This document shows, one piece after another, positions 4,031 to 18,362 of a stretch of 64,000 bases of DNA. The stretch's first letter is position 1, and every line of letters begins with the position of its first letter. The DNA is taken from positions 40,734 to 104,733 of the forward strand of contig JAHLWS010000038.1 in assembly GCA_019057795.1 (NCBI GenBank), in the 5' to 3' direction. The notes beneath the pieces are model-generated. The model was not told where the DNA came from and searched no databases. It saw only the letters and a list, made by a program, of their open reading frames with translations. This DNA comes from Promethearchaeota archaeon. Its GTDB lineage: Archaea > Asgardarchaeota > Lokiarchaeia > Sigyniarchaeales > SOKP01. The position numbers were made by a program, and so were the translations under genes.

Positions 4031-5260
4031 TTAGAGGTGTCTTGGAATTTTTATTTCAAGATCTGTAATTGGGTAGGATGCGCATGGATGGAAATAATCA
4101 AATTTCTTATCCCCAGCTTTTCTCCAATCAGAAACGGGATTTATATATACATCACCAGAAATAAGAAGTGAACGACAGAACCCACATTCGCCAGAGCGGC
4201 ATTTTGATGGTGGATTTAAGTTTGCCCGTTCTAGAGCAACAAGGACTGATTCTGTTGCCTTTGCTGGTATGTCTTTAATCAAACTTCCAATGTGAGTCTT
4301 AATTTTAAATACTTTATCAACTACATCTTGAGGGAAGTCTGGATTACTTAGAATATCTTTAATTTCACCAAATGCTTCTCTACGGACGCGTTTATGATGT
4401 AAATTGAATTTTTCTAATTCTTTTTCAACAAAATTATACATAACTTGTGGTCCACAGATAAAAAATGAACTATTGTTTATGTCGCAATACTTTTCTATAA
4501 TATCAGAAGTTAAAAAACCCAATTCAGATCCTTCAAGGGTGACTTCTTTACAACTTAAAACATGTACAACTTTAATTTTTTCTGGGTACTTCTTTTCAAT
4601 CTCTTTAAATTCGTCGTAATAAATAATGTCGTCTTCTTCGCTACTTCCATACAGCAAAGTTAATTTTGCATCTAATTTGTCTTCAACAATTTCTTTAGCG
4701 ATGGATCGGAAAGGTGTAATTCCTGACCCTCCTGCGAGACCGACTATCTGTTTTAAATCCCTAAGAGGTTCGTAAAAAAAGAATCCTTCTGGTCCAGAAC
4801 TTTCAATTTTAGTTCCTACTTTCCAACTATCCCATATGTATCCAGTTAAAAATCCGGGTTCTTCTTTTCTAATCGTAATTTCATAGAAACCTTTTAAAGC
4901 ATCCGAAGGAGAAGAAGCTATTGAATAAGGTCTTGTGATAGCAACTCCATTCACTTGAACCTTCAAACTTAAATATTGACCGGCTCTAAAATAGGCCAAT
5001 TCTTTTGTGTTTGAATCAGGATCGGGTGTGAGCTTAAATGTTTTAGTGGATTTTGTTTCGTCTTTGATTTCACTAATAACTAAGTATTGTCTTATGGGAT
5101 GAAGTCGCACAGCGAGTTCATTCATTGGATCCTTTGTTATCGGCTCACTAGATGCCTTTTCGAACCTCTTTTTTCGGTTTGGGACTAATTTTGTAAACGC
5201 AAATAAATCTCTTGTGTTGCTTTTGATAATTATATCAAATTTCTTTTTTTCTCCGCTCAT
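4031..5260 (-). CDS. FNR-type FAD/NAD-binding oxidoreductase with C-terminal 2Fe-2S domain
   Basis: RPYSI, GPEG, AGGSGITP, ICGP, CRSGECGFC...C. Confidence 0.9.
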   Translation of the reverse strand: MSGEKKKFDIIIKSNTRDLFAFTKLVPNRKKRFEKASSEPITKDPMNELAVRLHPIRQYLVISEIKDETKSTKTFKLTPDPDSNTKELAYFRAGQYLSLKVQVNGVAITRPYSIASSPSDALKGFYEITIRKEEPGFLTGYIWDSWKVGTKIESSGPEGFFFYEPLRDLKQIVGLAGGSGITPFRSIAKEIVEDKLDAKLTLLYGSSEEDDIIYYDEFKEIEKKYPEKIKVVHVLSCKEVTLEGSELGFLTSDIIEKYCDINNSSFFICGPQVMYNFVEKELEKFNLHHKRVRREAFGEIKDILSNPDFPQDVVDKVFKIKTHIGSLIKDIPAKATESVLVALERANLNPPSKCRSGECGFCRSLLISGDVYINPVSDWRKAGDKKFDYFHPCASYPITDLEIKIPRHL

Positions 5261-6825
5261 TTTAGCTCACCTTTTTTATGTAAATCTTGTAAAGTTAGTA
5301 AAGCAGCAGTTTCTCCGTCCTTTAAAGCACTACTATATCCGTGACATCTTTTGCCAAAACCACCACAAAATTCAAGACCCTCAATATGCTTTTCGTCATT
5401 CATTGTCATCAAGCGTGGGACAAATGAATCCCAAGAATCTGGTTCGTATCCATATACTACTCCATTATAACTTCTGGTAAATCTTGATATGGTTTGAGGC
5501 GTAGCAACTTCAATTTCTTCAATATGTTCCTTTATTGGAGCACCAGTAGTTTTTTCCAAAGTGTTAATAAGGTCTCCCGCGATTTTATTTTTTAATGTAA
5601 AGTAATCTTCGGGTTTAACATCGTCCCATACTCCCGGTAGAAAAGCAGTTGTAATCGAAATAATACATGTACCTGGAGGTGAGCAATCTGGGATTGCATT
5701 ATTTAAACAAATTGTTGCTTGAACCCCAGGCGTTTCAAGGTTGTTCAAAGATTCGTAAAGTACATCAGTATTCTTATTGTTATAAATAAAATAACTATAA
5801 TCTTTGAGTCCTAATTCATCGGCCGTTGCATCTAAACCCAAATAAACAACAAATGTAGAAACTCCATGCCTTCTCGCATTTATTTCCTTATAAGCAATTT
5901 CTGGAACTTCTGATTTGGGATGTATTAATTTGTTATAAGTAAGCGTGGGCGAAGCGTTGCAAACAACATGATTCGTTTTAATCTTATCTCCTTTAGAAGT
6001 TTCAACTCCGACAACTTTACCGTTTTCAACCAATATTTTTTCCACTGTCGTGTTATATTCGATTTTACCCCCTAATTCTCTAATACTTGTATCTAGAGCA
6101 GTAGTGTAGTCGTGAGATCGATATTTTGGAATATAAGCACCTTTTAAAATATAACCATAAACCATAGAAGCAAAGATCGTAAAATTTACTCTACTTGTTG
6201 GAAGGCCTAAATAAACCCAATACGCGTTAAGAATGCTCCTTGCTTTTTCTGGCATATTAAGGGCATTTTGAATATCCTCCACAGAATAAGCTGTAGTTTT
6301 AAGAAAATTTGAATGCTCCTTTAGTAAAACATTTTGATCTGGGTTTCCTTTTGATTGCCCTATATAGGCAGTTGCCCTATTAATGTCTTCTGCTAAGCCA
6401 AAAAACTTACTTACCGATTCTCTACTTCCCGGGACCTCTTTTTCAATAGTATCAAGATAAGAATCAATTCCAAACGGCATTACTACATCAACACCTTCAT
6501 CTGGGTCCGTTAAAATTAACCTATACGCCTCAGGAACTTCTACGAACTCTGAATCTAGGTTATATTTTTCTAATAATCTTCTAGTACCGCCCTTATCTGA
6601 TGAAGGCCCATAATCATAAAGTTCGTGAAGTGAAGTCTCAAACTCAAACCTTCCCCTTACAAAGCTGGAAGCAAATCCTCCAGGTAAGTTATGTTGTTCT
6701 AAAAGCAGTATTTTAACGCCTCTCATTGCTAATTCTGCGGCGGCTATTAGACCGCCATTACCGGCGCCAATTATTATAGCATCATAAGTTTCGCTAATTG
6801 CTTGTTCAATACTCTCATTACTCAT
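5257..6825 (-). CDS. CrtI/phytoene desaturase-retinol saturase-like FAD-dependent oxidoreductase
   Basis: N-terminal GAGNGG...EQHNLPGG..RGRFEFE; ATPQT..RF..GxxYG; overlaps the reductase gene by 4 nt. Confidence 0.85.
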   Translation of the reverse strand: MSNESIEQAISETYDAIIIGAGNGGLIAAAELAMRGVKILLLEQHNLPGGFASSFVRGRFEFETSLHELYDYGPSSDKGGTRRLLEKYNLDSEFVEVPEAYRLILTDPDEGVDVVMPFGIDSYLDTIEKEVPGSRESVSKFFGLAEDINRATAYIGQSKGNPDQNVLLKEHSNFLKTTAYSVEDIQNALNMPEKARSILNAYWVYLGLPTSRVNFTIFASMVYGYILKGAYIPKYRSHDYTTALDTSIRELGGKIEYNTTVEKILVENGKVVGVETSKGDKIKTNHVVCNASPTLTYNKLIHPKSEVPEIAYKEINARRHGVSTFVVYLGLDATADELGLKDYSYFIYNNKNTDVLYESLNNLETPGVQATICLNNAIPDCSPPGTCIISITTAFLPGVWDDVKPEDYFTLKNKIAGDLINTLEKTTGAPIKEHIEEIEVATPQTISRFTRSYNGVVYGYEPDSWDSFVPRLMTMNDEKHIEGLEFCGGFGKRCHGYSSALKDGETAALLTLQDLHKKGELK

Positions 6826-7100
6826 TTTAAATTCTCCTCATTTTTCAAAAAAAAAACAATATTAGTTCAATAAATTTTTGCATCTATTAATATATTATTC
6901 TGTTATTATTTAGTCAATATTTAAAATATATTGATTTAATTGTGGAAAGATCAAACTTTAAAAAAAAAGTATGTTTAATTATTTGACAAAGAGATATAAT
7001 TTTTAATAAAAAAAAATAACAATTAAAATATTAAAAGAAAAGAATTATATTAGTACCAATTTAAAATAAGAAATTTTTCGAATTTAAAGAGATAATTAAT

Positions 7101-10067
7101 ATGAATGAATTAGAAATTGATAAAGAGATTGAAAATTTTAAAGAGCAATTAAATTTACTAGCGATGATATTCGATACTCGTAGAAAAATGCGTAGAGAGA
7201 TATCTAACGAAAAAACAGGATTTGTCTTTAATGCTAGATATCAGTTTACTACAAAAGATGATGAAGTTAATGTAAACGTAATATTTAAAGATGGAAAAAT
7301 GACAGTCGGCGAGGGAAAAATTGACGATCCAAACATAACAATTTATTATAAAGATAAAGAGACTTTGGCTAATCTCTATAATAAAAGTGCTGAAGAATCT
7401 CTTGATTATCTTTTGACAAATGAAATGGGGTATATAGGAAACATGTCTTACCTTACTAAATTCTCTTATCTTACTTCACTTGTTACGGCTCCTAAAAAAA
7501 GGGCTTATAAAGGTCCAGAAAATCAATTAATATATCCTATCGAAGATATTGATAAGGGAAAAAAGAGCAGAAAACTAAGGAACGAGAGCTTAAATCGTAA
7601 GATCGATAATGTTCAAGTTTTAGAAGATCCATATCTGTCAAAATATACTTTAGATGATTTTCCACGCTTAAAATATTTGAAAAATAGAAGATTTGCCTTA
7701 AAACCAGTGATATGTGTTGAAAGAGCAAAACATTTGACAGAATATCATAGAGAGAATGGATTTGAAGTAGACAATTCAGGAAATCCGATTGATCCCGAAT
7801 TGCGCCAGGCAAGAGCAGTAAATCATATAATGTCAAATAAAAAACCAATAATTCATGATAAACATCTTATAGCAGGTTCAACTACTTCAAAAGAAGTAGG
7901 TATCCCCTTGTATCCGGAACTTATCGCGACGGGTATATGGCCTGAACTAAAAACTATTGGTGAACGTGAGCTTAATCCTAACGATATCTCAGATAAAGAT
8001 GCGGATATCTTAAGTTTGGAAGTATTTCCCTATTGGATGGAGCGGAATGTAAGAGAATATTGTAGAACAAAAAACAACGATCCATTCTCGCAGCATTTAG
8101 AAGAAGGGTGGGTTTTTTATTTCATGATGAAAAATAACGCGATTAGTCATACTGTTCCTGGTTTTCCAATGGTGCTTAATGAAGGGTTAGAAAGCGTGAA
8201 GAATAAAGCTAATAAAATGGAAATAAAAGCGGATACAACTGAAAAGCAAAATTTTTATAAGGCTATTCAAATTGCAATCGATGGGGTTCTAGCGTATTCT
8301 CAACATTTAAGTGAAGAAGCCCTTAGATCTGCTAATAATTTAGATCAAAATGATCCGGAACAAGCTACTCGCATTGAAGAATTGAAGGAACTCTCTAGAA
8401 TATGTGCCAAAGTCCCTGCTAAACCAGCAGAAACAATGTATGAAGCAGTTCAATCAATTTGGACTAGTTTTGTTTGTCTTCACTGTGAAAATGCAAATTC
8501 GGCTTTATCAATTGGTCGGCTTGATCAAATGTTACAACCTTTCTTTTTAAAAGAAATTGAAAAAGCTGCAAATGATGAAGAAAGAAATCAAATTGTAAAA
8601 AAAGCTATAGAATTTGTAGGATCGTTATTTTTGAGGATAAATGACCACGATCCGGTAATGCCGAATGTAGGGTGGAAATTATTCGGGGGGAGCTCTTCTG
8701 ACGACACAGTAACTATTGGAGGTGTAGATAGAGATGGTAAAAATGCCGTAAACGATATGAGTTTTATTATATTAAAAACAAATGAAATGCTGGGTTTTCA
8801 GGATCCTAATATGAATGCCAGATATTATTCTGGTATTAATTCAAAGGAGTATCTAAGACGATTGTGTGAAGTAAATATCAATATGGGCGCTTCGCCTAGT
8901 ATTCATAACGATAGAACTATGATTGAAGCGTTGGTCCATGAAGAATTCTCAATTGAAGACGCAAGAGATTGGGCGGCTACAGGTTGTGTAGAGCCCACAA
9001 TTGTAGGTAAACATTATGGTCATACGAATTGTATGCTTTTAAACTTAGTCGCACCATTAGAAATTACTTTAAATAATGGTTTCATACCTTTAACTGGAGA
9101 AAAAGTGGGTCCTGAAACGGGTGATGTTCGAACATCTTTCCCGACATTCGAAGACTTTCTTAATGCATATAAAACTCAACTCAAATATTTAGCAGAAAAA
9201 TCAATTGAAATAAATAATTATTTAGGAGAAGCCCATCGGTATATACATCCTACACCATTATTATCTGGATTCTTTGAGGGTCCTTTAGAACAAGGCAAAG
9301 ATCTTATTCAAGGAGGAGCTATTTATAATACATCAGGAGTTGCCTTAGTGGCATTGACAGATGTGGTTGATAGCTTATTAGTTGTAAGAGATCTCATCTA
9401 CAAGAAAAAAGAATTGAACTTTGCTACATTGATGGATGCCATTGAAAATAACTTTGAGAATGGTTTTGAATCAGTTCTACACAATATAGAACAAGTTCCA
9501 AAATTTGGGTCTGGCGAAAATGGTACTTTCGAACTTGCTCAAGATTTAATTGACTTTTGCTACGATGTTTATCATTCTATTGATAATTATAGAGGAGGTA
9601 AATACTTAGTGGGATATTGGTCTATTAGTTACCACGCAGGGTTTGGAATGCTTACTGGCGCCTTGCCCTCAGGTAGAAAGAAAGGTAAAGCATTAACACC
9701 TGGACTAACTCCCGCCCCGGGTACAACGGATATCCTATTACCAAGTATTCAAAGTGTTGCGAGCTTAGATTACTTGAAAATGCCAAATAATGCATCTTAT
9801 AATGTAAAATTAATACCTCATTCTGGAGATTCACATAAAGAAACATTAGATCTCTTTACAAGTTATGTGCAAAGCTTTTTTGATTTGAATGGGATGCAGT
9901 GGCAATTTAATGTCGTGTCCACTGATACATTAAGAGATGCGATGGCAAATCCAATTGATTACCGCTGGCTTTTAGTTAGAGTTTCAGGATATAACGCATA
10001 TTTCACGAAATTAAATAAGAATATGCAATTAGAATTTATTGAGCGGCATGAATATAAATCAAGATAA
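7101..10067 (+). CDS. Glycyl radical enzyme (eliminase/PFL2-like class) with N-terminal SCP2-like lipid-binding domain
   Basis: Cys loop ATGCVEP, Gly loop RVSGY, SIGRLDQ; N-terminal ~130 aa (YQFTT..VIFKDGKMTVGEGKIDDPNITI..YIGN) match the SCP2 pattern. Confidence 0.88.
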   Translation: MNELEIDKEIENFKEQLNLLAMIFDTRRKMRREISNEKTGFVFNARYQFTTKDDEVNVNVIFKDGKMTVGEGKIDDPNITIYYKDKETLANLYNKSAEESLDYLLTNEMGYIGNMSYLTKFSYLTSLVTAPKKRAYKGPENQLIYPIEDIDKGKKSRKLRNESLNRKIDNVQVLEDPYLSKYTLDDFPRLKYLKNRRFALKPVICVERAKHLTEYHRENGFEVDNSGNPIDPELRQARAVNHIMSNKKPIIHDKHLIAGSTTSKEVGIPLYPELIATGIWPELKTIGERELNPNDISDKDADILSLEVFPYWMERNVREYCRTKNNDPFSQHLEEGWVFYFMMKNNAISHTVPGFPMVLNEGLESVKNKANKMEIKADTTEKQNFYKAIQIAIDGVLAYSQHLSEEALRSANNLDQNDPEQATRIEELKELSRICAKVPAKPAETMYEAVQSIWTSFVCLHCENANSALSIGRLDQMLQPFFLKEIEKAANDEERNQIVKKAIEFVGSLFLRINDHDPVMPNVGWKLFGGSSSDDTVTIGGVDRDGKNAVNDMSFIILKTNEMLGFQDPNMNARYYSGINSKEYLRRLCEVNINMGASPSIHNDRTMIEALVHEEFSIEDARDWAATGCVEPTIVGKHYGHTNCMLLNLVAPLEITLNNGFIPLTGEKVGPETGDVRTSFPTFEDFLNAYKTQLKYLAEKSIEINNYLGEAHRYIHPTPLLSGFFEGPLEQGKDLIQGGAIYNTSGVALVALTDVVDSLLVVRDLIYKKKELNFATLMDAIENNFENGFESVLHNIEQVPKFGSGENGTFELAQDLIDFCYDVYHSIDNYRGGKYLVGYWSISYHAGFGMLTGALPSGRKKGKALTPGLTPAPGTTDILLPSIQSVASLDYLKMPNNASYNVKLIPHSGDSHKETLDLFTSYVQSFFDLNGMQWQFNVVSTDTLRDAMANPIDYRWLLVRVSGYNAYFTKLNKNMQLEFIERHEYKSR

Positions 10068-10156
10068 ACCTAATGAAAGATATTTTTTTTATTCATTTTA
10101 TCTAACTTTTTAATTTTTTTATCTTTACTTTTATTGACGATATTATATTCTCAACA

Positions 10157-11056
10157 ATGACAGATAAAACTCTATTAGTAGATATTAAAAGGAACGCTTT
10201 AGATGACGGTCCAGGAATAAGAACATTACTATTTTTTAAAGGTTGCCCACTTTCTTGTGTATGGTGCCAAAATCCTGAAGCCAAATCGCCATTTAAAGAA
10301 ATTTCTTTTAATAAAGATAGTTGTAGTGAATGTGGAACATGTTTAAAAGTTTGTAATCAAGAAGCTATAGATTTTTCATATAAATATCGAATAGATCGCT
10401 CTTTATGTAATCTCTGTGGTAAATGCATTGAAGTATGCCCAAATTATGCCTTAGAATTTGTAGGACAAGAATATAGCATAAAAGACTTACTTGAAATTAT
10501 ATTAAAAGATAAAATTTTTTATAAAAATTCAGGTGGAGGGGTTACCTTTTCTGGCGGAGAACCACTTTTTCATATAGATTACATAAAGGAATTAGTAAAA
10601 GAACTCAAAAAAGAAGATATTCATTTATGCATTGAAACCTGTGGATATTATAATCGAGACAAATTTTATGAATTTATTTTACCATATATCGACCTTATTT
10701 ATTTTGATTTGAAAATTTACAATCCACAATTACATGCTAGATATTGTAAAGTTTCAAACGAGAGGATATTAAAAAATTTTGAAGATATCATTGAAAACAA
10801 ATCAATAGAAATATTACCAAGGATTCCTCTTGTTCCTAATATAACTGATACTGACGATAATTTGAGTAACTTAGCTAATTATTTGAAAACCTTAAATATA
10901 AAAAAAATAGGATTATTACCTTATAATCCACTCTGGCTCTCTAAACCAGAAAAGATAGGAATTAAACCATCCTATGACTATTCTGAATGGTTAGATAATA
11001 AAGATAAAGAGAGAATTAAATCAATTTTTTCTGATTTTGAATTTAAAGATTTTTAG
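10157..11056 (+). CDS. Glycyl-radical enzyme activating protein (radical SAM, with 2x[4Fe-4S] insert)
   Basis: DGPGIRT, GCPLSCVWCQNPE, two CxxCxxCxxxC motifs, GVTFSGGEP. Confidence 0.95.
   Translation: MTDKTLLVDIKRNALDDGPGIRTLLFFKGCPLSCVWCQNPEAKSPFKEISFNKDSCSECGTCLKVCNQEAIDFSYKYRIDRSLCNLCGKCIEVCPNYALEFVGQEYSIKDLLEIILKDKIFYKNSGGGVTFSGGEPLFHIDYIKELVKELKKEDIHLCIETCGYYNRDKFYEFILPYIDLIYFDLKIYNPQLHARYCKVSNERILKNFEDIIENKSIEILPRIPLVPNITDTDDNLSNLANYLKTLNIKKIGLLPYNPLWLSKPEKIGIKPSYDYSEWLDNKDKERIKSIFSDFEFKDF
10981..11056 (+). repeat. Activase 3' end (copy A'), duplicated in degenerate form at 15241..15316
   Basis: Ungapped 58/76 nt identity by manual alignment; first 13 nt and 23 of the last 24 nt identical. 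Confidence 0.85.
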
Positions 11057-11087
11057 CTAAGCAATTTATTTTAATATCTCTAATTTT
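11037..11087 (+). repeat. 51-bp direct repeat, left copy (last activase codons plus downstream flank)
   Basis: 48/51 nt identical to 14466..14516. Confidence 0.9.
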
Positions 11088-11269
11088 TATTTTCTAAAAA
11101 TTTCTGCGACATCTTGTCCCTTTTTTGGACATATACATTAGACTGTATACTCTACAAATTCTATGAACAACAACCTTTCTCTGCTTATCATGATAATCGC
11201 TTCTTTTAATTAATATCTAAAAAAATATTTATTGTTTTTATACTAAATTGTTAATTCCTAAATAATTAG

Positions 11270-11395
11270 AGCCCAAATCAAATACCAGACATTCAAACCT
11301 GTTATTTTGGTACAAGATTCACAGAAAAAGAAATATTATATATCAAAAAAAATGCAAAAAAAAGAAGCCAGACAATTGGTGAATTAAATAATTAA
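11270..11395 (+). pseudogene. Ribbon-helix-helix (CopG/MobC-like) DNA-binding fragment
   Basis: Manual translation ...CYFGTRFTEKEILYIKKNAKKRSQTIGEL; no start codon. Confidence 0.4.
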
Positions 11396-11400
11396 TATAT

Positions 11401-12543
11401 CTAGAAAATGTTAAATAATTCAGAATATCTTCTAAGGTAATCAGGAAATTTATCGATTAAATCTTTCGTTTTGAATGCATTATTAGCACAATTTACAAAA
11501 TCTTGTTGCGATTCTAATAAATCATCTGGAAAAATACCTGAAATTTTAACTTTATTCAATCTAATTTCTCTTATTTGAGAGTAGTTGGTATTTAAAAATT
11601 CTTTCCATTTATCCAGAAAAGAATCCTCTTTAATAATAAATAGATTGATAATATCTTTAAACATGGAGTTTGCGACATCTGGTCTTTCTTTTATATTTAA
11701 TTCAGCATTTTTACATTTTGTTTTTAATTCTTCAGCATTTTTGAACCAGAGGATATATTCAAGAAATTTTTTTATATTAGTTAGTAAGTCAAGATCGTAA
11801 TAAAAGATATTTTGCAAATCTTGTTCTCTTTTGACAAGTCTCAGAATATCTCTAACTTGTTTTATTCTAGTGATTCTTTCTTGAAATCCCTCTACTGAAT
11901 CCTTTTTATGCTTCCAAAAATTCGTCCAACCCTTAATAAAATACTCTGTTATCTCTTTATTTTCAAGAAAAATAATTTCCTCTATTGGGATTCTTGAATA
12001 GAAATGAGATAATTTTCCAATAAATATTTTACGAGCTTGTTCTATGATCCTTGCCTTCCAACAATATTTCAAATTTTCAATTATTATATTATAAGGGACA
12101 TTAAATGGATTATGAAAAATAATTTCAAATGGACCATATGATCTACTAGCATCTGGAGGAGAAATTCTTGGTATATACAATCTTCTCGTTGTGTCCTTTA
12201 TTTTTGTATTAATATCTTCAATAATATTATGCGAAGGAAGGAGTATTTCTGTAGATTCAAGTGGAAAAAATATCAAGTCTTTATTAGGAAGGATATCACA
12301 ATCTTGACTAGCTAAAATGCCCCAGTGAGCATCTATGAACCCTTCCACTTGCATTTGACCTCCATTTTTTAATATTTTTGTTAAAATCTCGTCTTTTTCA
12401 TTTTGAAACTTATCTAGAATGTCTGGACTCGATCGAATTAAGGAGTCATACGTTAAATAAGGTAAATTGCAAAAAATATCTCCTTGCGAGATTAAAACTT
12501 CATTCTTAATCATATCCTTGTATTTATAAATTGTTTTTTCCAT
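11401..12543 (-). CDS. Hypothetical protein with N-terminal 'QGDI...SQDCD' domain (PemK/MazF-like fold suspected) and helical C-terminus
   Basis: SQGDIF and ILASQDCDI motifs; third gene of the operon. Confidence 0.5.
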   Translation of the reverse strand: MEKTIYKYKDMIKNEVLISQGDIFCNLPYLTYDSLIRSSPDILDKFQNEKDEILTKILKNGGQMQVEGFIDAHWGILASQDCDILPNKDLIFFPLESTEILLPSHNIIEDINTKIKDTTRRLYIPRISPPDASRSYGPFEIIFHNPFNVPYNIIIENLKYCWKARIIEQARKIFIGKLSHFYSRIPIEEIIFLENKEITEYFIKGWTNFWKHKKDSVEGFQERITRIKQVRDILRLVKREQDLQNIFYYDLDLLTNIKKFLEYILWFKNAEELKTKCKNAELNIKERPDVANSMFKDIINLFIIKEDSFLDKWKEFLNTNYSQIREIRLNKVKISGIFPDDLLESQQDFVNCANNAFKTKDLIDKFPDYLRRYSELFNIF

Positions 12544-12561
12544 GATTAAGATCCAATTATT

Positions 12562-13191
12562 TTATTTTAAATTCCTCAATCTTTCCTTTCTATTCTGAAT
12601 ACAATTAGAATACACTATTAAAGATCTTACGGAATGTTTCAATAATTTATTTTCTTTCTTGTTTGTAATCTTCTTAAAAATTTCATCCTTCCAAAATTCT
12701 TCATCAATGATTTCAACTAGATCATTATCTTTTGATAATTCATTACAAATGTAATAGAAGGTATCTGGAGAAAATTGATCTTCAGGTTCTAAACGTGAAT
12801 AGGCATCCGGATCATTCTTTTTTAATTCATATATAATAGAAAGGTAAAATAGCGTTATAGAATTTAAGAATTTCGAATTCTTAATCTTAGGATCCCCTAA
12901 GAGTCGAAGGTATGTGATGATTAATCGGTGAAAAATGAGTGGAATTATTTCAGAACTCTCTTTGCTAACTAGATTTTTAATTTTCATTTTAATTTCCTTT
13001 GTTTTATCTATAAATTCTATTAGTGGATCTTCTTCCGATTCTTCGGATTCTTCCTCACTTTCAGTAGATGTTGCATCATCGTAAAACCATTTTATAATAA
13101 TAGACGCATTATCGATAATCCAATCTTGAATTTCAAGTTCAAGCTTTTTTAAATCAGGTGATTGGAAACTTTCCTCAATCTTATAACTCAT
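12562..13191 (-). CDS. Hypothetical protein with acidic tract
   Basis: 209-aa ORF, DDATSTESEEESEESEED; 12-18 nt spacing from neighbours. Confidence 0.65.
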   Translation of the reverse strand: MSYKIEESFQSPDLKKLELEIQDWIIDNASIIIKWFYDDATSTESEEESEESEEDPLIEFIDKTKEIKMKIKNLVSKESSEIIPLIFHRLIITYLRLLGDPKIKNSKFLNSITLFYLSIIYELKKNDPDAYSRLEPEDQFSPDTFYYICNELSKDNDLVEIIDEEFWKDEIFKKITNKKENKLLKHSVRSLIVYSNCIQNRKERLRNLK

Positions 13192-13203
13192 TTCAAGCCC
13201 TTT

Positions 13204-13950
13204 TTAATAATCTTTTACTTCAAGTTCGAGAGCATCTCTATATTCATCTGTCAAAAAATTTATGAAGTAATCTTCAATTCTATCATGGCATTCATTTAAA
13301 TGACTTTCAAGAATTTCAGTATCGGGGCCTATACTAGTATTAGCTACACTTCCTACGGTCTCTAATCTAAAATTGTAGTTTACCTCATCGTGATTTTTGG
13401 GGATAGATTTGAATCTTATGACAATCTTTCTCTTTCCCGAGATAGGGTCATCTTCAAAAGGTACAAATCCTAAGATTGTGTCATAGAATTTTATTTCCCA
13501 CTCGTGTTTAAAGTTAAAATTCGGCATAGTAAAAAACTTATTATACAAAAACGCCTCCTTTGGAATAGTAAAAATATCTATATATGTTAATACTATTTTA
13601 CTAATCTTAGGAAGGTCTAAAATTTTACCTAGAGCATTTAGTACAGTCAATATTTTAGGCAATTCTCTAACCCATTCTTGATAGTCAGAAAAAGTAAATA
13701 AAAGATAGTCTTGCCCAAGTTCTACACGATTTCTTTTGTTTGTATCCCAGAAAGTAAGAGGAGCTATATTAATTTCTGTAAAGCGCTTTTTGAGTAATCC
13801 TAAGAGTGGTTTTGTAGGGTAATATGCTTGAATGGCTTCTGCAAAAGGATTTATTTTTTCAAGTTTTATTCCCGGAAGCAATCTTTCATAGGTTAAATTA
13901 ATTATGAAATTATCTAATGTTCTCTTTCCAAAATATACTATTCTCTTCAT
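13204..13950 (-). CDS. TIGR04255-family protein
   Basis: ~250 aa; F..YQEW, KIVLTYIDIF, LNECHDRIEDYFINFLTDE pattern typical of the family. Confidence 0.65.
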   Translation of the reverse strand: MKRIVYFGKRTLDNFIINLTYERLLPGIKLEKINPFAEAIQAYYPTKPLLGLLKKRFTEINIAPLTFWDTNKRNRVELGQDYLLFTFSDYQEWVRELPKILTVLNALGKILDLPKISKIVLTYIDIFTIPKEAFLYNKFFTMPNFNFKHEWEIKFYDTILGFVPFEDDPISGKRKIVIRFKSIPKNHDEVNYNFRLETVGSVANTSIGPDTEILESHLNECHDRIEDYFINFLTDEYRDALELEVKDY

Positions 13951-14085
13951 AATAAAAACTTAAAATTATTATTTTACTTTAATAGATCTTTATACTTTTT
14001 ATCAATAAATTTTTTATCATTAAAAATTTATACTTTTTTGAATATTCAATTATTCCTTTAGTAAGAAATTAACTTTGAAAATTAA

Positions 14086-14469
14086 AAATCAACTACTAAT
14101 AAACATCATCATTATTTCTATAAATTTTATTTCAGGGATAATAGACTCCCTCAACCAATTGAGAGTTATTTATCGTTTACAGAAAAAAATTTATCCAGAA
14201 CTTACCATAAAATTATGGAAGAAAAATCTATAAATAACCTAAATGAGAAGGAAATAAAATATCTAGTTAACCTTACTTATTACTAATAAGTCCGAATAGA
14301 ATATATGAGAACTAAAGCAATACAGATATTAAAGGATGCTACAGAAAAAGAGAAATCTAATTACTTGAAAGATCAAACAATTAAAGAATATAATGAATTT
14401 AAAGAGTTTGGCACGACTAAGCATCCAATCAGACTCCAAAAATTATTAATTGTTGTTGATGATGATTGA
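14086..14469 (+). pseudogene. DUF4238-like remnant
   Basis: Manual translation HYFYKF..QPIESYLSFTEKNLSRTYHKIMEEKSINNLNEKE..YY**VR; two in-frame TAA at 14284-14289; ends at the repeat. Confidence 0.5.
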
Positions 14470-14516
14470 ATTTAACGATTTTTAGCTAAGCAATTTTTTT
14501 TATTATCTCTAATTTT
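14466..14516 (+). repeat. 51-bp direct repeat, right copy (reads EFNDF*)
   Basis: 48/51 nt identical to 11037..11087. Confidence 0.9.
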
Positions 14517-14644
14517 AATATTATCAAAATAACTCTAGCATAACATTTAAATAGATAAATCCCTATATATATAACATAAGCATATCCTTTAAAATTAGAA
14601 AAGATGTTTGTATAACAATTACTTTTTGAAAAAGGTGGTATTGT

Positions 14645-15208
14645 ATGACAACTATTGCAGAAAAATTAATAAAAGAATTAAAAACAAAAGCTTTAACAAT
14701 TCTTCAATTAAGTGAAATAACAGGGATTGAAGAACCAAAAATAAGAACTACTATTAAAAGATTAAAAGATAGAGCCATAGTCCAAGAAACAGGTATGTTT
14801 TCAGAAAGATATAAAATATATAAACTTTCAGACAAATTGTTTAATGCATCTTTCATAATGAGAATTATAAAGAAGCTTGATGGTGTAAAAGCTGTCATTC
14901 TTATAAGTATTATTGATGGCGCACCAATAAGCAGTATACTTCCGGAAGGAGCTAATGAATCTCGTTATGCAGCAATGACTACTGCTCTATTTAGTCTAGC
15001 GCAAAGAGCATGCGTCGCAACTAATAAAGGAAAATTCAAATTTTCTTATATCGAAGGAGAAGATGGAAAACTTCTAATAATATATTACCATAAAGCGTTA
15101 GTTTTATCGATTTCATTCGATTCAACAATTAGCAATGAAATGATTTTTACATCCTATATTAGAATTATAGAATTAATCGGTAATCCTTTATCTGATTTAA
15201 TTCAATAG
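14645..15208 (+). CDS. Winged-HTH fused to roadblock/LC7 domain
   Basis: N-terminal LTILQLSEITGIEEPKIRTTIKRL; C-terminal GVKAVILISIIDGAPISS..YAAMTTALFSLA..IEGEDG. Confidence 0.8.
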   Translation: MTTIAEKLIKELKTKALTILQLSEITGIEEPKIRTTIKRLKDRAIVQETGMFSERYKIYKLSDKLFNASFIMRIIKKLDGVKAVILISIIDGAPISSILPEGANESRYAAMTTALFSLAQRACVATNKGKFKFSYIEGEDGKLLIIYYHKALVLSISFDSTISNEMIFTSYIRIIELIGNPLSDLIQ

Positions 15209-15240
15209 AGCTTTATTTAATAATTAAGCTGGTTCTCAAG

Positions 15241-15316
15241 TTCTGAATGGTTAACTAAATAGAAAAAAAAAGAGATTAAAGAGATATTTTCAGATTTTGA
15301 ATTTAAAGATTTTTAA
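15241..15316 (+). pseudogene. Displaced original 3' end of the activase gene
   Basis: From 15242 reads SEWLTK*KKKEIKEIFSDFEFKDF* versus intact SEWLDNKDKERIKSIFSDFEFKDF*; its stop overlaps the AOR stop. Confidence 0.85.
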
Positions 15317-17109
15317 ATTGGTTTACCTTGTGCATCCCACTTTCTAATTTGGTAATACTTTTCTAATAATCCTTCTAATGGAGGAATATTATGTTTAGTT
15401 CCACCTTTTTCAAGGGGTGAATAAAATCTCTTCCCAAAATTATCGTCTGCTTTAGTGATCCCACAATTTACATTAAAAATTCTTTTCATTCTAATGATCT
15501 TTTGTCCTACTTTCATGAAATCATCAACTGTATATGCTCTTCCAGTAATTCCATTAAGACCATTTATCCAAGGTGTGAGTTTGTGGATGAACCAGAATCC
15601 AAATATACATCCACCACAGGCAGAATACGCCTCACTGGCATCTTGAATCTTTATTACAGCTTTGGCAACATCATCCCCCGTTCCAAAACGATCTACTTGT
15701 TCGGTTAAACCGATTTCTTCTTTTTGATTCATATAGGAAGATAAATGCATTGGTTCATAACAATGATATGCACCTCGAGGTGTTGTTGCATAATCTAATG
15801 CCGTTAGATTATTTGCTCGTGGTTCATGAGCAGGAACCTCGAGTCCTTTTCCATGCATGGAGAGTTCTTCTGGTAATCCCTTTACTTCACAAAAAGATCT
15901 CACTCCTTCAGCTAAATCATTACCAATTCCTTCTCGATAAGCAATTTTAGTGAAAAGTTTTTCTATCGGTCCAATAGCACCCCAAATATTTTCCTCAGTA
16001 AATCCAAATTCATCTAAATTAACATCAATTAGCTTTCTTTCAATAGATTCAAGAAAACATCCTATCATTGCCCCAAGACTAATTGAGTCCAGACCAAGAT
16101 CGTTGACTATTAAATTCCATTTGATTAACGCTTCTAAGTCGTTAACTAATAAATTAGAACCTAGCATTCCTAGTGTTTCATATTCAGGGCGAGTTACCCA
16201 TTCTCCCTCATATTCCACGAACCCTCTGCAAGCCGTTGGACAATTAAAACAACCATGCATTTTAACTTCTCCTCTTGCATTTAATGCTTTTGCTCCAATT
16301 TTTTTAATCCCAGTCCATCTTCCTTGAGTATAGTTCTTAATAATAATATCTCCTACACTAGCCATGGAGTCTATGTGGACTGGTGTACCTGAATCTGCTA
16401 TTACCATTCCTAATCCGGATTTCTTTAATAATTCTCTAAGTTCTTTAGCTGCATCATTCACTTTATCTTTATCTTGAACGGGAACTTTCCCCGTACCAAG
16501 GACTGCAATAGCTTTTAAGTTCTTGCTACCCATTACAGCTCCCATACCGCAACGTCCAGCTGCGTGATGTTTATCATTGATTATACACGCATATTTGACT
16601 AAATTTTCTCCAGCAGGGCCAATAGTAGCTACTTTTATTTTATCGTTTCCAAGCAGATCTTTTATTTTTTCATCAGTTTCTTGAGTTCCTTTTCCCCACA
16701 ATTCAGAAGCGTCCTTTATTTCTACTACCCCGTCATTTATCCATAGATAAACCGGGCTTTGACTTTTACCCTTAATGATTACTAGATCAAAACCTGCAGA
16801 TTTAAGCTCCTTACCAAAAAAACCTCCTGAAGATGCTTCCCCGAGAATTTTAGTTAGCGGTGATTTTGCTGTAATAAAGTATCTACCACAGAAAGGAATA
16901 GCTGTGCCGCAAAATGGACCAACTGAGAAGATCAAAAGATTATTTCCATCAAACGGATCAATTTCGGGTTCTACTTCTCGTGTGAAGATCGCAGTTGCTA
17001 AACCCATTCCTCCGATTAATGACACTTCATCTTCATCACTGTAATCTTCATAGTCAATGTTTTTCGTTTCTAAATCTATTCTTAAAATTTTTGCGATTTT
17101 TATCACCAA
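15313..17109 (-). CDS. aor: Aldehyde:ferredoxin oxidoreductase (W/Mo-pterin)
   Basis: KSPLT, AGRCGMGAVMGSKNLKAI, CxxCxxxC, PEYET, LGLDSIS, GKGLE. Confidence 0.92.
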   Translation of the reverse strand: MVIKIAKILRIDLETKNIDYEDYSDEDEVSLIGGMGLATAIFTREVEPEIDPFDGNNLLIFSVGPFCGTAIPFCGRYFITAKSPLTKILGEASSGGFFGKELKSAGFDLVIIKGKSQSPVYLWINDGVVEIKDASELWGKGTQETDEKIKDLLGNDKIKVATIGPAGENLVKYACIINDKHHAAGRCGMGAVMGSKNLKAIAVLGTGKVPVQDKDKVNDAAKELRELLKKSGLGMVIADSGTPVHIDSMASVGDIIIKNYTQGRWTGIKKIGAKALNARGEVKMHGCFNCPTACRGFVEYEGEWVTRPEYETLGMLGSNLLVNDLEALIKWNLIVNDLGLDSISLGAMIGCFLESIERKLIDVNLDEFGFTEENIWGAIGPIEKLFTKIAYREGIGNDLAEGVRSFCEVKGLPEELSMHGKGLEVPAHEPRANNLTALDYATTPRGAYHCYEPMHLSSYMNQKEEIGLTEQVDRFGTGDDVAKAVIKIQDASEAYSACGGCIFGFWFIHKLTPWINGLNGITGRAYTVDDFMKVGQKIIRMKRIFNVNCGITKADDNFGKRFYSPLEKGGTKHNIPPLEGLLEKYYQIRKWDAQGKPI

Positions 17110-17258: not shown

Positions 17259-18362
17259 ATGAGTATAAGAAAAAATATTAAGTTAGTAGACCCAAATATG
17301 GCAAAAGTCTTCATTCCATGGGTATTAAGACATCCTTCTTATTTAATTACAACAAGAAAATTAATTAAATCCTTCAAAAATACAGTTGAATTATGTAAAA
17401 AAGCTAAAGAAGAAGGTTTAAAAGTTCCACCCTTTCTAATTCTGAGTATTACGAAACAATGTAATTTACATTGTGCAGGATGTTATGCTGCTACCGCTGG
17501 AACCTTGAGCATCAAAACTGAAAAGCAATTAAATACCGATGCTTGGAGAAAGATTATAAAGGAAGGAAATGAATTAGGAGTATTTTGCTATGTAATTGCT
17601 GGTGGAGAACCATTCATGTTTCCAAACCTACTCGATTTATGTAGCGAGTTCAAGGATAGAGGTTTTATAATTTTTACAAATGGAACGGCAATCAAAGAAA
17701 CTGATTATGAGAAATTGAAAAAATTAAAAAACATCGCGATCATCGTTAGCATTGAAGGAGGTAAAGAGGAGACTGATAGTAGAAGAGGAGCGGGGGTTTA
17801 TGAAAAGGTATTAAAAACTATTCATAGACTTAACAAAATTGGCACAATAAATGGTATATCAGTGACAATCAATGGAATGAATTATAAACAATGGATGGAA
17901 CCTTCTATGATTGACTTTCTTATTAAAAAAGGTGTAAGAATAGGATTCTTCTTAGAGTATATTCCCACCAAGCATGATATTACAGAATCTTTAATGTTGA
18001 CAGAAGAAGAAAGAACAGCATTCCGAAACCAAATATTAAATTATAGAGCGAATAAAAAAATTTATTTAATTCATTCACCCGGAGATGAAGAATATATGGG
18101 CGGATGTGTTTCAGCGGGAAGAGGTTTCGCCCATGTTACTCCATCTGGAGCTTTAACACCTTGCCCAGTTTCTAGTATGACTACGCATAATTTAACTAAA
18201 TCATCATTACGTGAAGGATTAGCTAGTGATTTTTTTAAATATATAAGGGAAAATGAACATTTATTGGAAACTGAAGGCTCTCCTTGTGCACTTTTTAGCC
18301 ATCAGGAAGAATTGGCCTTAATTGCTTCTAAATTTAAAGTAAGTAAGGTAAGTACATTATAG
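17259..18362 (+). CDS. Radical SAM protein (SPASM/twitch-type)
   Basis: CNLHCAGC, GGEP, GCVSAGRG..PC. Confidence 0.9.
   Translation: MSIRKNIKLVDPNMAKVFIPWVLRHPSYLITTRKLIKSFKNTVELCKKAKEEGLKVPPFLILSITKQCNLHCAGCYAATAGTLSIKTEKQLNTDAWRKIIKEGNELGVFCYVIAGGEPFMFPNLLDLCSEFKDRGFIIFTNGTAIKETDYEKLKKLKNIAIIVSIEGGKEETDSRRGAGVYEKVLKTIHRLNKIGTINGISVTINGMNYKQWMEPSMIDFLIKKGVRIGFFLEYIPTKHDITESLMLTEEERTAFRNQILNYRANKKIYLIHSPGDEEYMGGCVSAGRGFAHVTPSGALTPCPVSSMTTHNLTKSSLREGLASDFFKYIRENEHLLETEGSPCALFSHQEELALIASKFKVSKVSTL

Follow-up and report, generated by a model that had tools for sequence, protein, structure and literature searches.

A glycyl radical enzyme family joined to SCP2 domains in Asgard archaea and sediment bacteria: a candidate system for radical cleavage of amphiphile head groups

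Glycerol dehydratase of C. butyricum (1R8W) and propanediol dehydratase of R. inulinivorans (5I2A) are glycyl radical enzymes (GREs) whose products are aldehydes, and they are paired with a CoA-acylating aldehyde dehydrogenase in a microcompartment. The E. coli GREs YbiW and PflD, soluble isomerases of 1,5-anhydro-sugar phosphates, use Glu-assisted heterolytic cleavage of a ring-ether C–O bond next to a hydroxyl-bearing carbon (PMC13450708), and the X-succinate synthases BSS and MASS take water-insoluble substrates, with accessory proteins seated over the substrate channel (PMC13450708). The accessory subunits known for GREs are only small iron proteins, either HiPIP-like or rubredoxin-like, and a 2026 review names it a clear gap that no archaeal GRE has a known function (PMC13450708). 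Here we analyse a GRE gene with an N-terminal SCP2 domain in a 64,000-nucleotide stretch of contig JAHLWS010000038.1 (positions 40,734 to 104,733; hereafter the window), from the 4.95-Mb Asgard (Promethearchaeota) assembly GCA_019057795.1. The core system consists of three genes, encoding the SCP2-fused GRE, its radical S-adenosylmethionine (SAM) activase and a tungsten aldehyde:ferredoxin oxidoreductase (AOR) family protein. We propose, with a probability of roughly 0.55, that the GRE, with an amphiphile bound at its SCP2 domain, catalyses a radical 1,2-elimination in the polar head group of that amphiphile, and that AOR oxidizes the resulting aldehyde. Loci, genomes and taxonomic families are cited below by L, G and f numbers.

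Catalytic apparatus and relatives of the enzyme

The protein combines the features expected of the GRE superfamily: a PFL-like barrel (residues 191–849, Pfam PF02901, E 8e-153; the catalytic barrel starts at about residue 185), a Gly_radical domain (residues 866–969, PF01228, E 4.6e-22) with the RVxG[FWY] fingerprint, a Cys-loop cysteine and a dedicated, adjoining radical SAM activase (TIGR02494, 289.5 bits against a cut-off of 174). The Cys loop GCVEP spans residues 628–632, with Cys629 (nt 8985–8987) and Glu631, and the Gly loop RVSGY spans residues 960–964, with Gly963 (nt 9987–9989); both loops, and every gene listed in an initial annotation of the window, were found where that annotation had placed them. 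Residues were mapped through HMMER alignments to PDB chains 5i2a and 5fay. The Cys-x-Glu (CXE) motif, invariant in 121 of 121 family proteins, aligns with Cys438/Glu440 of propanediol dehydratase, and His350 (nt 8148–8150) aligns with His166 of that enzyme, the position of His164 in glycerol dehydratase and Asp216 in CutC. In glycerol dehydratase, His164 is the acid that protonates the leaving hydroxyl (residue roles from PMC13450708). The CXE motif and the placement of His350 agree with the eliminase-type apparatus proposed in the initial annotation.

Among solved structures the enzyme scored best against A. fulgidus PFL2 (2F3O, 373 bits), followed by propanediol dehydratase (354 bits), glycerol dehydratase (342 bits) and HypD (340 bits). 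PFL2 is an archaeal CXE enzyme with a histidine at the same position, whose function, glycerol dehydratase or alkylsuccinate synthase, is still under debate (PMC13450708); it is shorter (776 aa), lacks SCP2 and has Asn-Gln where the host family has Asp-Asp. With the two dehydratases the host enzyme shares the ten-stranded barrel, the RVxG[FWY] fingerprint, the CXE motif, the histidine and an activase with a ferredoxin insert, but identity is only about 30% and some 185 additional N-terminal residues carry the SCP2 domain. It reached no curated equivalog or subfamily cut-off (TIGR01774, 529 against 678 bits; HypD, 414 against 1100; CutC, 393 against 1050; PRK09983 (PflD), 377 against 1109; HpsG, 361 against 1000). 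The substrate-binding residues of glycerol dehydratase, propanediol dehydratase and CutC are not kept: Asp534 stands in place of Phe344 in propanediol dehydratase and Phe395 in CutC, Asn643 replaces the dehydratases' conserved Asp at Cys+14, Leu646 replaces Tyr506 of CutC, and His350 replaces its Asp216. The pocket is unlike that of any characterized GRE, and the enzyme retains the specificity residues of no characterized small-substrate member. Among 16 orthologues compared, all 16 keep Cys629, Glu631, His350, Asp534/Asp535 (nt 8700–8705), Gly963 and the pocket residues, the polar and acidic pocket set being N346, S467, D534, D535, H641, T642 and N643, and this invariance suggests one conserved function across the fused family.

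PFL-family GREs of Hermodarchaeota and other Asgard archaea have been called alkyl/benzylsuccinate synthases, on the basis of 29–33% identity to AssA and BssA and a single Cys on the Cys loop (PMC8163825). Hydrocarbon activation by fumarate addition would share the theme of a hydrophobic substrate, and the SCP2-fused family has representatives in Desulfatibacillum and Desulfosudaceae, groups with hydrocarbon degraders among them. The host enzyme, however, scores only 191 bits against MasD and 174 bits against BSS, far below its scores against the eliminase group, and it keeps the CXE motif, whereas the Cys loop of BSS and MASS has no Glu. Desulfatibacillum alkenivorans DSM 16219 (G201) encodes a true AssA (1485 bits to MasD, 9o8u; Cys loop C-M-S, without the Glu) and, separately, an orthologue 64% identical to the host GRE. 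BSS and MASS also need small Fe–S subunits (PMC13450708); no gene for such a subunit lies beside the host GRE, where the 275-bp upstream spacer holds no open reading frame (ORF) of at least 25 aa and the activase follows after only 89 bp. We therefore rejected an X-succinate synthase identity, which we regard as highly improbable; judged by these sequence comparisons, the published label does not hold for the SCP2-fused family.

Several further GREs were observed. The host carries seven paralogues of about 800 aa without SCP2, each on a different contig, two of which exceed the PFL2-3 cut-off, and this GRE complement is unusually large for an archaeon. D. alkenivorans DSM 16219 has ten GREs, two of them SCP2-fused (64% and 46% identical to the host enzyme). 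In one distant N-fused homologue (P0151, 985 aa), Ala replaces the catalytic Cys and Gln the CXE Glu, and a pattern search for the Gly loop R[VIT][SAGC]G[YFW] found none in it; this relative may be inactive or wired differently.

The SCP2 domain and the distribution of the family

Taken alone, the host enzyme matches Pfam SCP2 (PF02036) marginally (E 0.067; 14.0 bits, below the gathering cut-off of 21.3), and a sequence-only PDB search with the N-terminal profile returned no SCP2 structure, only a spurious TetR-like match (E 0.19). Across the family, 25 of 27 N-termini match Pfam SCP2 (best E 7e-6), and conservation is strong over the first ~130 residues (alignment A1), the conserved positions being mostly hydrophobic or aromatic. 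An AlphaFold model of residues 1–195 (mbb691d2c9557) has a pLDDT of about 90 over residues 1–100, and the domain is followed by a low-confidence, disordered linker (residues 131–168; nt 7491–7604). The top Foldseek matches of the SCP2 model were almost all SCP2 folds (E 6e-5, probability 1.00, target TM-score 0.55–0.65), among them UbiJ-SCP2 (6h6p), AF1534 (3bn8), alkylsulfatase SCP2-like domains and MFE-2 (1ikt). Together, the matches of the relatives and of the model indicate that the SCP2 fold recognized in the initial annotation is genuine. The GRE-linked domains form a subfamily that mostly escapes Pfam and has motifs of its own (RxNI, ARYxF and GN(L/M)xYxxKFxY).

The profile of the N-terminal region was searched against 1.8 billion representatives and returned 325 protein clusters, from both sediment bacteria and Asgard archaea. 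They include orthologues of about 988 aa, more distant N-fused GREs (985–1024 aa, 35–46% identical to the host enzyme) and about 100 stand-alone proteins of ~150 aa. Pfam gave no match to the stand-alone partners at E 0.01 or better, and the stand-alone protein that was modelled likewise takes an SCP2 fold (Foldseek E 2e-6). Next to the stand-alone gene, a GRE was detected in 66 of 80 metagenome loci and an activase likewise in 66 of 80; in most of the loci lacking either, the contig ends within a few hundred bases of the SCP2 gene. Wherever all three genes share a contig their order is GRE, SCP2, activase, and that GRE is about 800 aa long with a CXE motif. In L098, GRE and SCP2 form a single ORF, an apparent C-terminal fusion. 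Fusion in both orders together with a split operon form is Rosetta-stone evidence that GRE and SCP2 work together. In a tree whose outgroups were E. coli PflD, YbiW and the host's own paralogues only, all SCP2-associated GREs fell into one clade (support 100), with PflD, YbiW and the seven host paralogues outside it. SCP2 is thus a regular partner of one GRE clade, fused N-terminally, apparently fused C-terminally or encoded separately, and the split-form operon, whose GRE pocket differs, is a second, uncharacterized SCP2–GRE system. A 213-aa uncharacterized protein was also seen in 13 of the split-form loci (L086–L165; for example L095, L136 and L148).

By fold, fused and stand-alone domains alike match best to UbiJ-SCP2 (6H6P), the SCP2-like domain of MFE-2 (1IKT) and the C-terminal domain of the alkylsulfatase SdsA1 (2CFU). 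In these three systems SCP2 binds the hydrophobic portion of a substrate on which a catalytic partner acts, but in none of them is that partner a radical enzyme. The GRE-linked SCP2 may play a gating or delivery role, by analogy with the small subunits of BSS and MASS, which are HiPIP-like or rubredoxin-like Fe proteins rather than SCP2 domains. Full-text searches of open literature found no paper linking GREs with SCP2, in line with the remark in the initial annotation that no characterized GRE is known to have such a fusion.

In a FastTree phylogeny of the GRE family, rooted on one distant fused homologue, the Asgard enzymes form one clade (support 97) nested among sequences of Thermodesulfobacteriota and Bdellovibrionota. 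Its sister is a Desulfobacterales group in which two of four loci (L050, L062) have AOR directly after the GRE. The simplest reading of the tree is a single transfer from bacteria to Asgard archaea, from the sulfate-reducer side.

Conserved neighbours and the proposed reaction

Gene neighbourhoods were compared by tblastn and ORF clustering in 74 loci, 66 of them species-representative and 8 obtained by exact look-up. The activase adjoins the GRE in 38 loci (ORF clustering). AOR lies within the fetched flanks of 24 of the 74 loci. The gene contexts are of at least five unrelated kinds: in Asgard archaea, the Ldh2–CDF block described below, a block of AlaRS, GRE, activase and AOR, and the separate loci L039 and L051; in Desulfobacterales and Bdellovibrionota, GRE followed by AOR (L050), activase, enoyl-CoA hydratase, GRE and AOR (L062), enoyl-CoA hydratase, AOR, acyl-CoA dehydrogenase and GRE (L064), and GRE and activase with SDR and AOR farther on. 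The host genome has 13 AOR-family matches, the linked gene included, so chance adjacency would be expected in a few per cent of loci. The 16 GRE-linked Asgard AORs form one clade (support 100) that excludes the nine host-genome paralogues placed in the tree, and the bacterial ones fall into two other clades. Three AOR lineages mean that the association arose at least three times, and it extends far past the host lineage, so that the co-occurrence of AOR and GRE on which the initial annotation had relied holds well beyond this genome. In our view this three-fold recruitment, as traced in the AOR tree, is the strongest argument for an aldehyde as the GRE product.

Genes for enoyl-CoA hydratase (14 loci) and a ~600-aa acyl-CoA dehydrogenase (directly upstream of the GRE in 5 loci) recur beside bacterial and some Asgard copies; TetR, SDR and MaoC genes are recurrent as well. 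Acyl-CoA dehydrogenase and enoyl-CoA hydratase catalyse the first two steps of beta-oxidation. NCBIfam gave only generic matches for the linked hydratase and dehydrogenase, the best for the dehydrogenase being acryloyl-CoA reductase (124 bits against a cut-off of 640).

In the proposed reaction, the activase would place the radical on Gly963, from which it would move to Cys629. Cys629 would then take a hydrogen from a carbon that bears a hydroxyl in the polar head of the substrate. Glu631 would deprotonate that hydroxyl as a group on the next carbon leaves, either a hydroxyl, with His350 as proton donor, or else an amino or alkoxy group, and an aldehyde would result. SCP2 would meanwhile hold the hydrophobic tail of the water-insoluble substrate and present or gate it at the buried active site. 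AOR would then oxidize the aldehyde to the acid with ferredoxin, and in many genomes acyl-CoA dehydrogenase and enoyl-CoA hydratase would carry the product onward. Reaction type, aldehyde product, lipid binding by SCP2 and substrate are all inferred. The substrate might be a long-chain 1,2-diol, a 1-O-alkylglycerol, or a 2-amino-1-alkanol or sphingoid base. Archaeol and isoprenoids, which the initial annotation had also put forward, are less likely because the family is nested among sulfate reducers and has beta-oxidation partners.

Some observations weigh against this proposal. PflD and YbiW, which are isomerases, and all seven host paralogues share the CXE motif and the histidine at the His350 position, so the motif set is of an eliminase/isomerase type and does not by itself diagnose a dehydratase. 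The pocket positions are polar or acidic rather than obviously lipophilic, Asp534/Asp535 contrasting with Phe in propanediol dehydratase and CutC. Around several homologues, those of Desulfatibacillum (L001, L061) among them, neither AOR nor hydratase is found, nor even an activase. Last, the split-form operons have other neighbours, a DUF6765 protein in 27 loci and an 880-aa protein without a Pfam match in 19.

The polar pocket would also suit a soluble small-molecule eliminase or isomerase acting on a polyol, an amino alcohol or a sugar-phosphate-like compound, in which SCP2 would be a structural or regulatory accessory rather than a lipid carrier, controlling the glycyl-radical domain or oligomerization as the small subunits of BSS, MASS and HPAD do. 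Some SCP2-fold domains have non-lipid roles, and the stand-alone partners lack Pfam matches at the threshold given above. Known GRE accessory subunits, moreover, regulate radical installation and channel access (PMC13450708). Against this, the fused and stand-alone domains match almost exclusively SCP2 lipid-binding folds, the conserved residues of the domain are mostly hydrophobic or aromatic, enoyl-CoA hydratase and the ~600-aa acyl-CoA dehydrogenase recur in the operon, and the reactive head of an amphiphile would want a polar pocket anyway. We consider the small-molecule alternative a real but clearly lesser possibility.

The initial annotation had drawn a wider pathway, in which a CrtI-like/FNR pair acting on C=C bonds would join GRE and AOR in modifying lipids or isoprenoids such as archaeol and hydroxylated isoprenoids. 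The CrtI-like protein scores far below the cut-off of TIGR02730 (118.6 against 586.9 bits), and the reductase is PaaE-like (142.6 bits, also under the cut-off); the two genes occur together in nearly every locus that has either. In about 20 Asgard loci the pair is found upstream of the GRE and transcribed away from it, and two loci (L029, L035) have a second such pair beyond AOR, so that twin flavoenzyme cassettes bracket the GRE–activase–AOR core there. Across 201 sampled Asgard genomes, GRE and pair occur together in 14; another 7, among them 4 of the 6 genomes of family f19, have the GRE without the pair, and 8 have the pair without the GRE. CrtI-like orthologues are confined in this sample to families f1 (20 of 40 genomes) and f2 (1 of 3). 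All the loci with divergent adjacency also carry flanking cation-efflux and usually Ldh2 genes, in the synteny block Ldh2-Ldh2-CDF-(FNR-CrtI)-GRE; these flanking genes are kept equally well, and common descent therefore explains the adjacency. L008 and L015 have the block without the pair, and the pair is missing from the AlaRS block, from family f19 and from all bacterial loci. Three pair-only genomes (G141, G040, G147) are 100% complete, and in G135, G177 and G165 the pair and the GRE lie on different contigs. Being tied to one Asgard synteny block and present in eight sampled genomes without the GRE, the pair is not supported as an integral member of the pathway; it appears to be a lineage-restricted neighbour, possibly thematically related, outside the conserved system. 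With the bacterial origin and beta-oxidation partners also speaking against isoprenoid substrates, we judge the wider pathway unlikely.

Within the proposed head-group elimination, a more specific version would make the system the first O2-independent route by which glycerol ether lipids, or the head group of a similar amphiphile, are cleaved. Here SCP2-GRE would dehydrate the free vicinal diol of a 1-O-alkylglycerol to a 3-alkoxypropanal, which AOR would oxidize to 3-alkoxypropionate. After CoA activation, acyl-CoA dehydrogenase would form an enol ether, enoyl-CoA hydratase would add water to give a hemiacetal, and this would collapse to a fatty alcohol and 3-oxopropionyl-CoA. Such a scheme would use all four recurrent partners and would fit ether-lipid-rich sulfate reducers and sediment Asgard archaea. 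YbiW and PflD, with the same CXE motif and histidine, cleave a ring ether and hence offer a precedent for ether cleavage by this apparatus; they lack SCP2 and fall outside the SCP2-associated clade. We regard the ether route as a long shot.

D. alkenivorans and D. aliphaticivorans are models for alkylglycerol ether lipids (PMC5552659; PMC13159169), and both carry the GRE gene. The enzyme could thus instead remodel membrane lipids biosynthetically, towards ether-type or other unusual lipids, having been acquired by Asgard archaea from ether-lipid-producing sulfate reducers. High conservation (63% between Asgard and Desulfatibacillum sequences) and the several copies that stand alone in their genomes would suit such a role. 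AOR, acyl-CoA dehydrogenase and enoyl-CoA hydratase are catabolic partners, however, and within one genus 9 of 16 genomes have the gene, a scattered distribution that would be unusual for a core membrane function. A link to bacterial ether-lipid synthesis through Ger/PlsA was also examined and rejected, as their marker domain DUF2229 is not co-distributed with the GRE across the 201 Asgard genomes: family f19 has the GRE in 4 of 6 genomes and DUF2229 in 0 of 6, and in family f5 a 1400-aa DUF2229 form is present in most genomes, against 0 of 21 with the GRE. The host's own DUF2229 gene encodes 362 aa and lies on another contig. A biosynthetic role is in our estimate improbable, and elimination on an amphiphile head group remains the preferred reading.

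Locus map, nested insertion and significance

The features of the locus are listed in Table 1. Two Ldh_2 genes and a cation-efflux gene flank it, just outside its limits. The start of the reductase gene and the stop codon of the CrtI-like gene overlap by 4 bp. The divergent spacer was not enriched in a promoter and terminator scan, the model of which is for sigma-70 and does not apply to an archaeon.

Table 1. Features of the SCP2–GRE locus (window positions)
Feature	Position	Strand	Size and evidence
FNR-like reductase	4031–5260	−	409 aa; Pfam FAD_binding_6, NAD_binding_1, C-terminal 2Fe-2S
CrtI/carotenoid-isomerase-family FAD protein	5257–6825	−	522 aa; Pfam Amino_oxidase E 2e-13
Divergent intergenic region, CrtI-like gene/GRE	6826–7100		275 bp
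SCP2-fused GRE	7101–10067	+	988 aa; Pfam PFL-like and Gly_radical
Predicted N-terminal SCP2 domain of GRE	7101–7505	+	residues 1–135; family Pfam and Foldseek
GRE activase, radical SAM with ferredoxin-like insert	10157–11056	+	299 aa; TIGR02494
Nested insertion between activase and AOR	11057–15312		4.26 kb; not part of the system
Three-gene cassette	11401–12543, 12562–13191, 13204–13950	−	380, 209, 248 aa; GC ~0.25–0.29
TrmB-like winged-helix HTH fused to Roadblock/LC7	14645–15208	+	only gene of the inner cassette
AOR, tungsten aldehyde:ferredoxin oxidoreductase family	15313–17109	−	598 aa; AFOR_N E 3e-79, AFOR_C E 4e-91

The low-GC insertion is bounded by copies of the activase 3′ end: the last 75 nt of the gene (10981–11055) are repeated at 15241–15315, abutting AOR, and a second pair lies at 11037–11101 and 14466–14530 (direct repeats D1, 77%, and D2, 89%). 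The activase 3′ end is thus present in three copies that delimit two nested cassettes. Activase and AOR genes are directly adjacent in L012 and L016–L021, and with the bounding repeats this upholds the proposal in the initial annotation that the two genes were direct neighbours before the insertion. The three ORFs between 11401 and 13950 occur in none of the 74 related loci, and the HTH/Roadblock gene is also present in L009, L010 and L031; the end of the activase gene is a recurrent insertion site. The 248-aa ORF matches TIGR04255, the sole NCBIfam match among the island ORFs, PADLOC returned nothing on these ORFs, and no integrase is in sight at the island. Beyond AOR and divergent from it lies a radical SAM gene (17259–18362, + strand) that adjoins AOR also in L009, L010 and L033. 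Its product has a weak match to TIGR04317, a maturase family of tungsten-cofactor oxidoreductases (69 bits against a cut-off of 380), and may be an AOR maturase.

The association of a whole GRE clade with a lipid-carrier module points to radical chemistry on water-insoluble substrates beyond hydrocarbons, and the system may be an anaerobic equivalent of the oxygen-dependent reactions that cleave lipid head groups or ethers. Aldehyde-forming radical splitting of head groups without oxygen would be chemistry not yet described for lipids, and if the ether-cleavage scheme were true, the SCP2 partner would represent a new class of GRE accessory module. The analysis corrects the alkyl/benzylsuccinate synthase label once used to infer hydrocarbon degradation by Asgard archaea, and it documents a gene transfer touching lipid-related metabolism between sulfate reducers and Asgard archaea, in which the bacteria are the simplest donors. 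Because Desulfatibacillum carries an orthologue and is cultivable, the proposed function can be tested directly.

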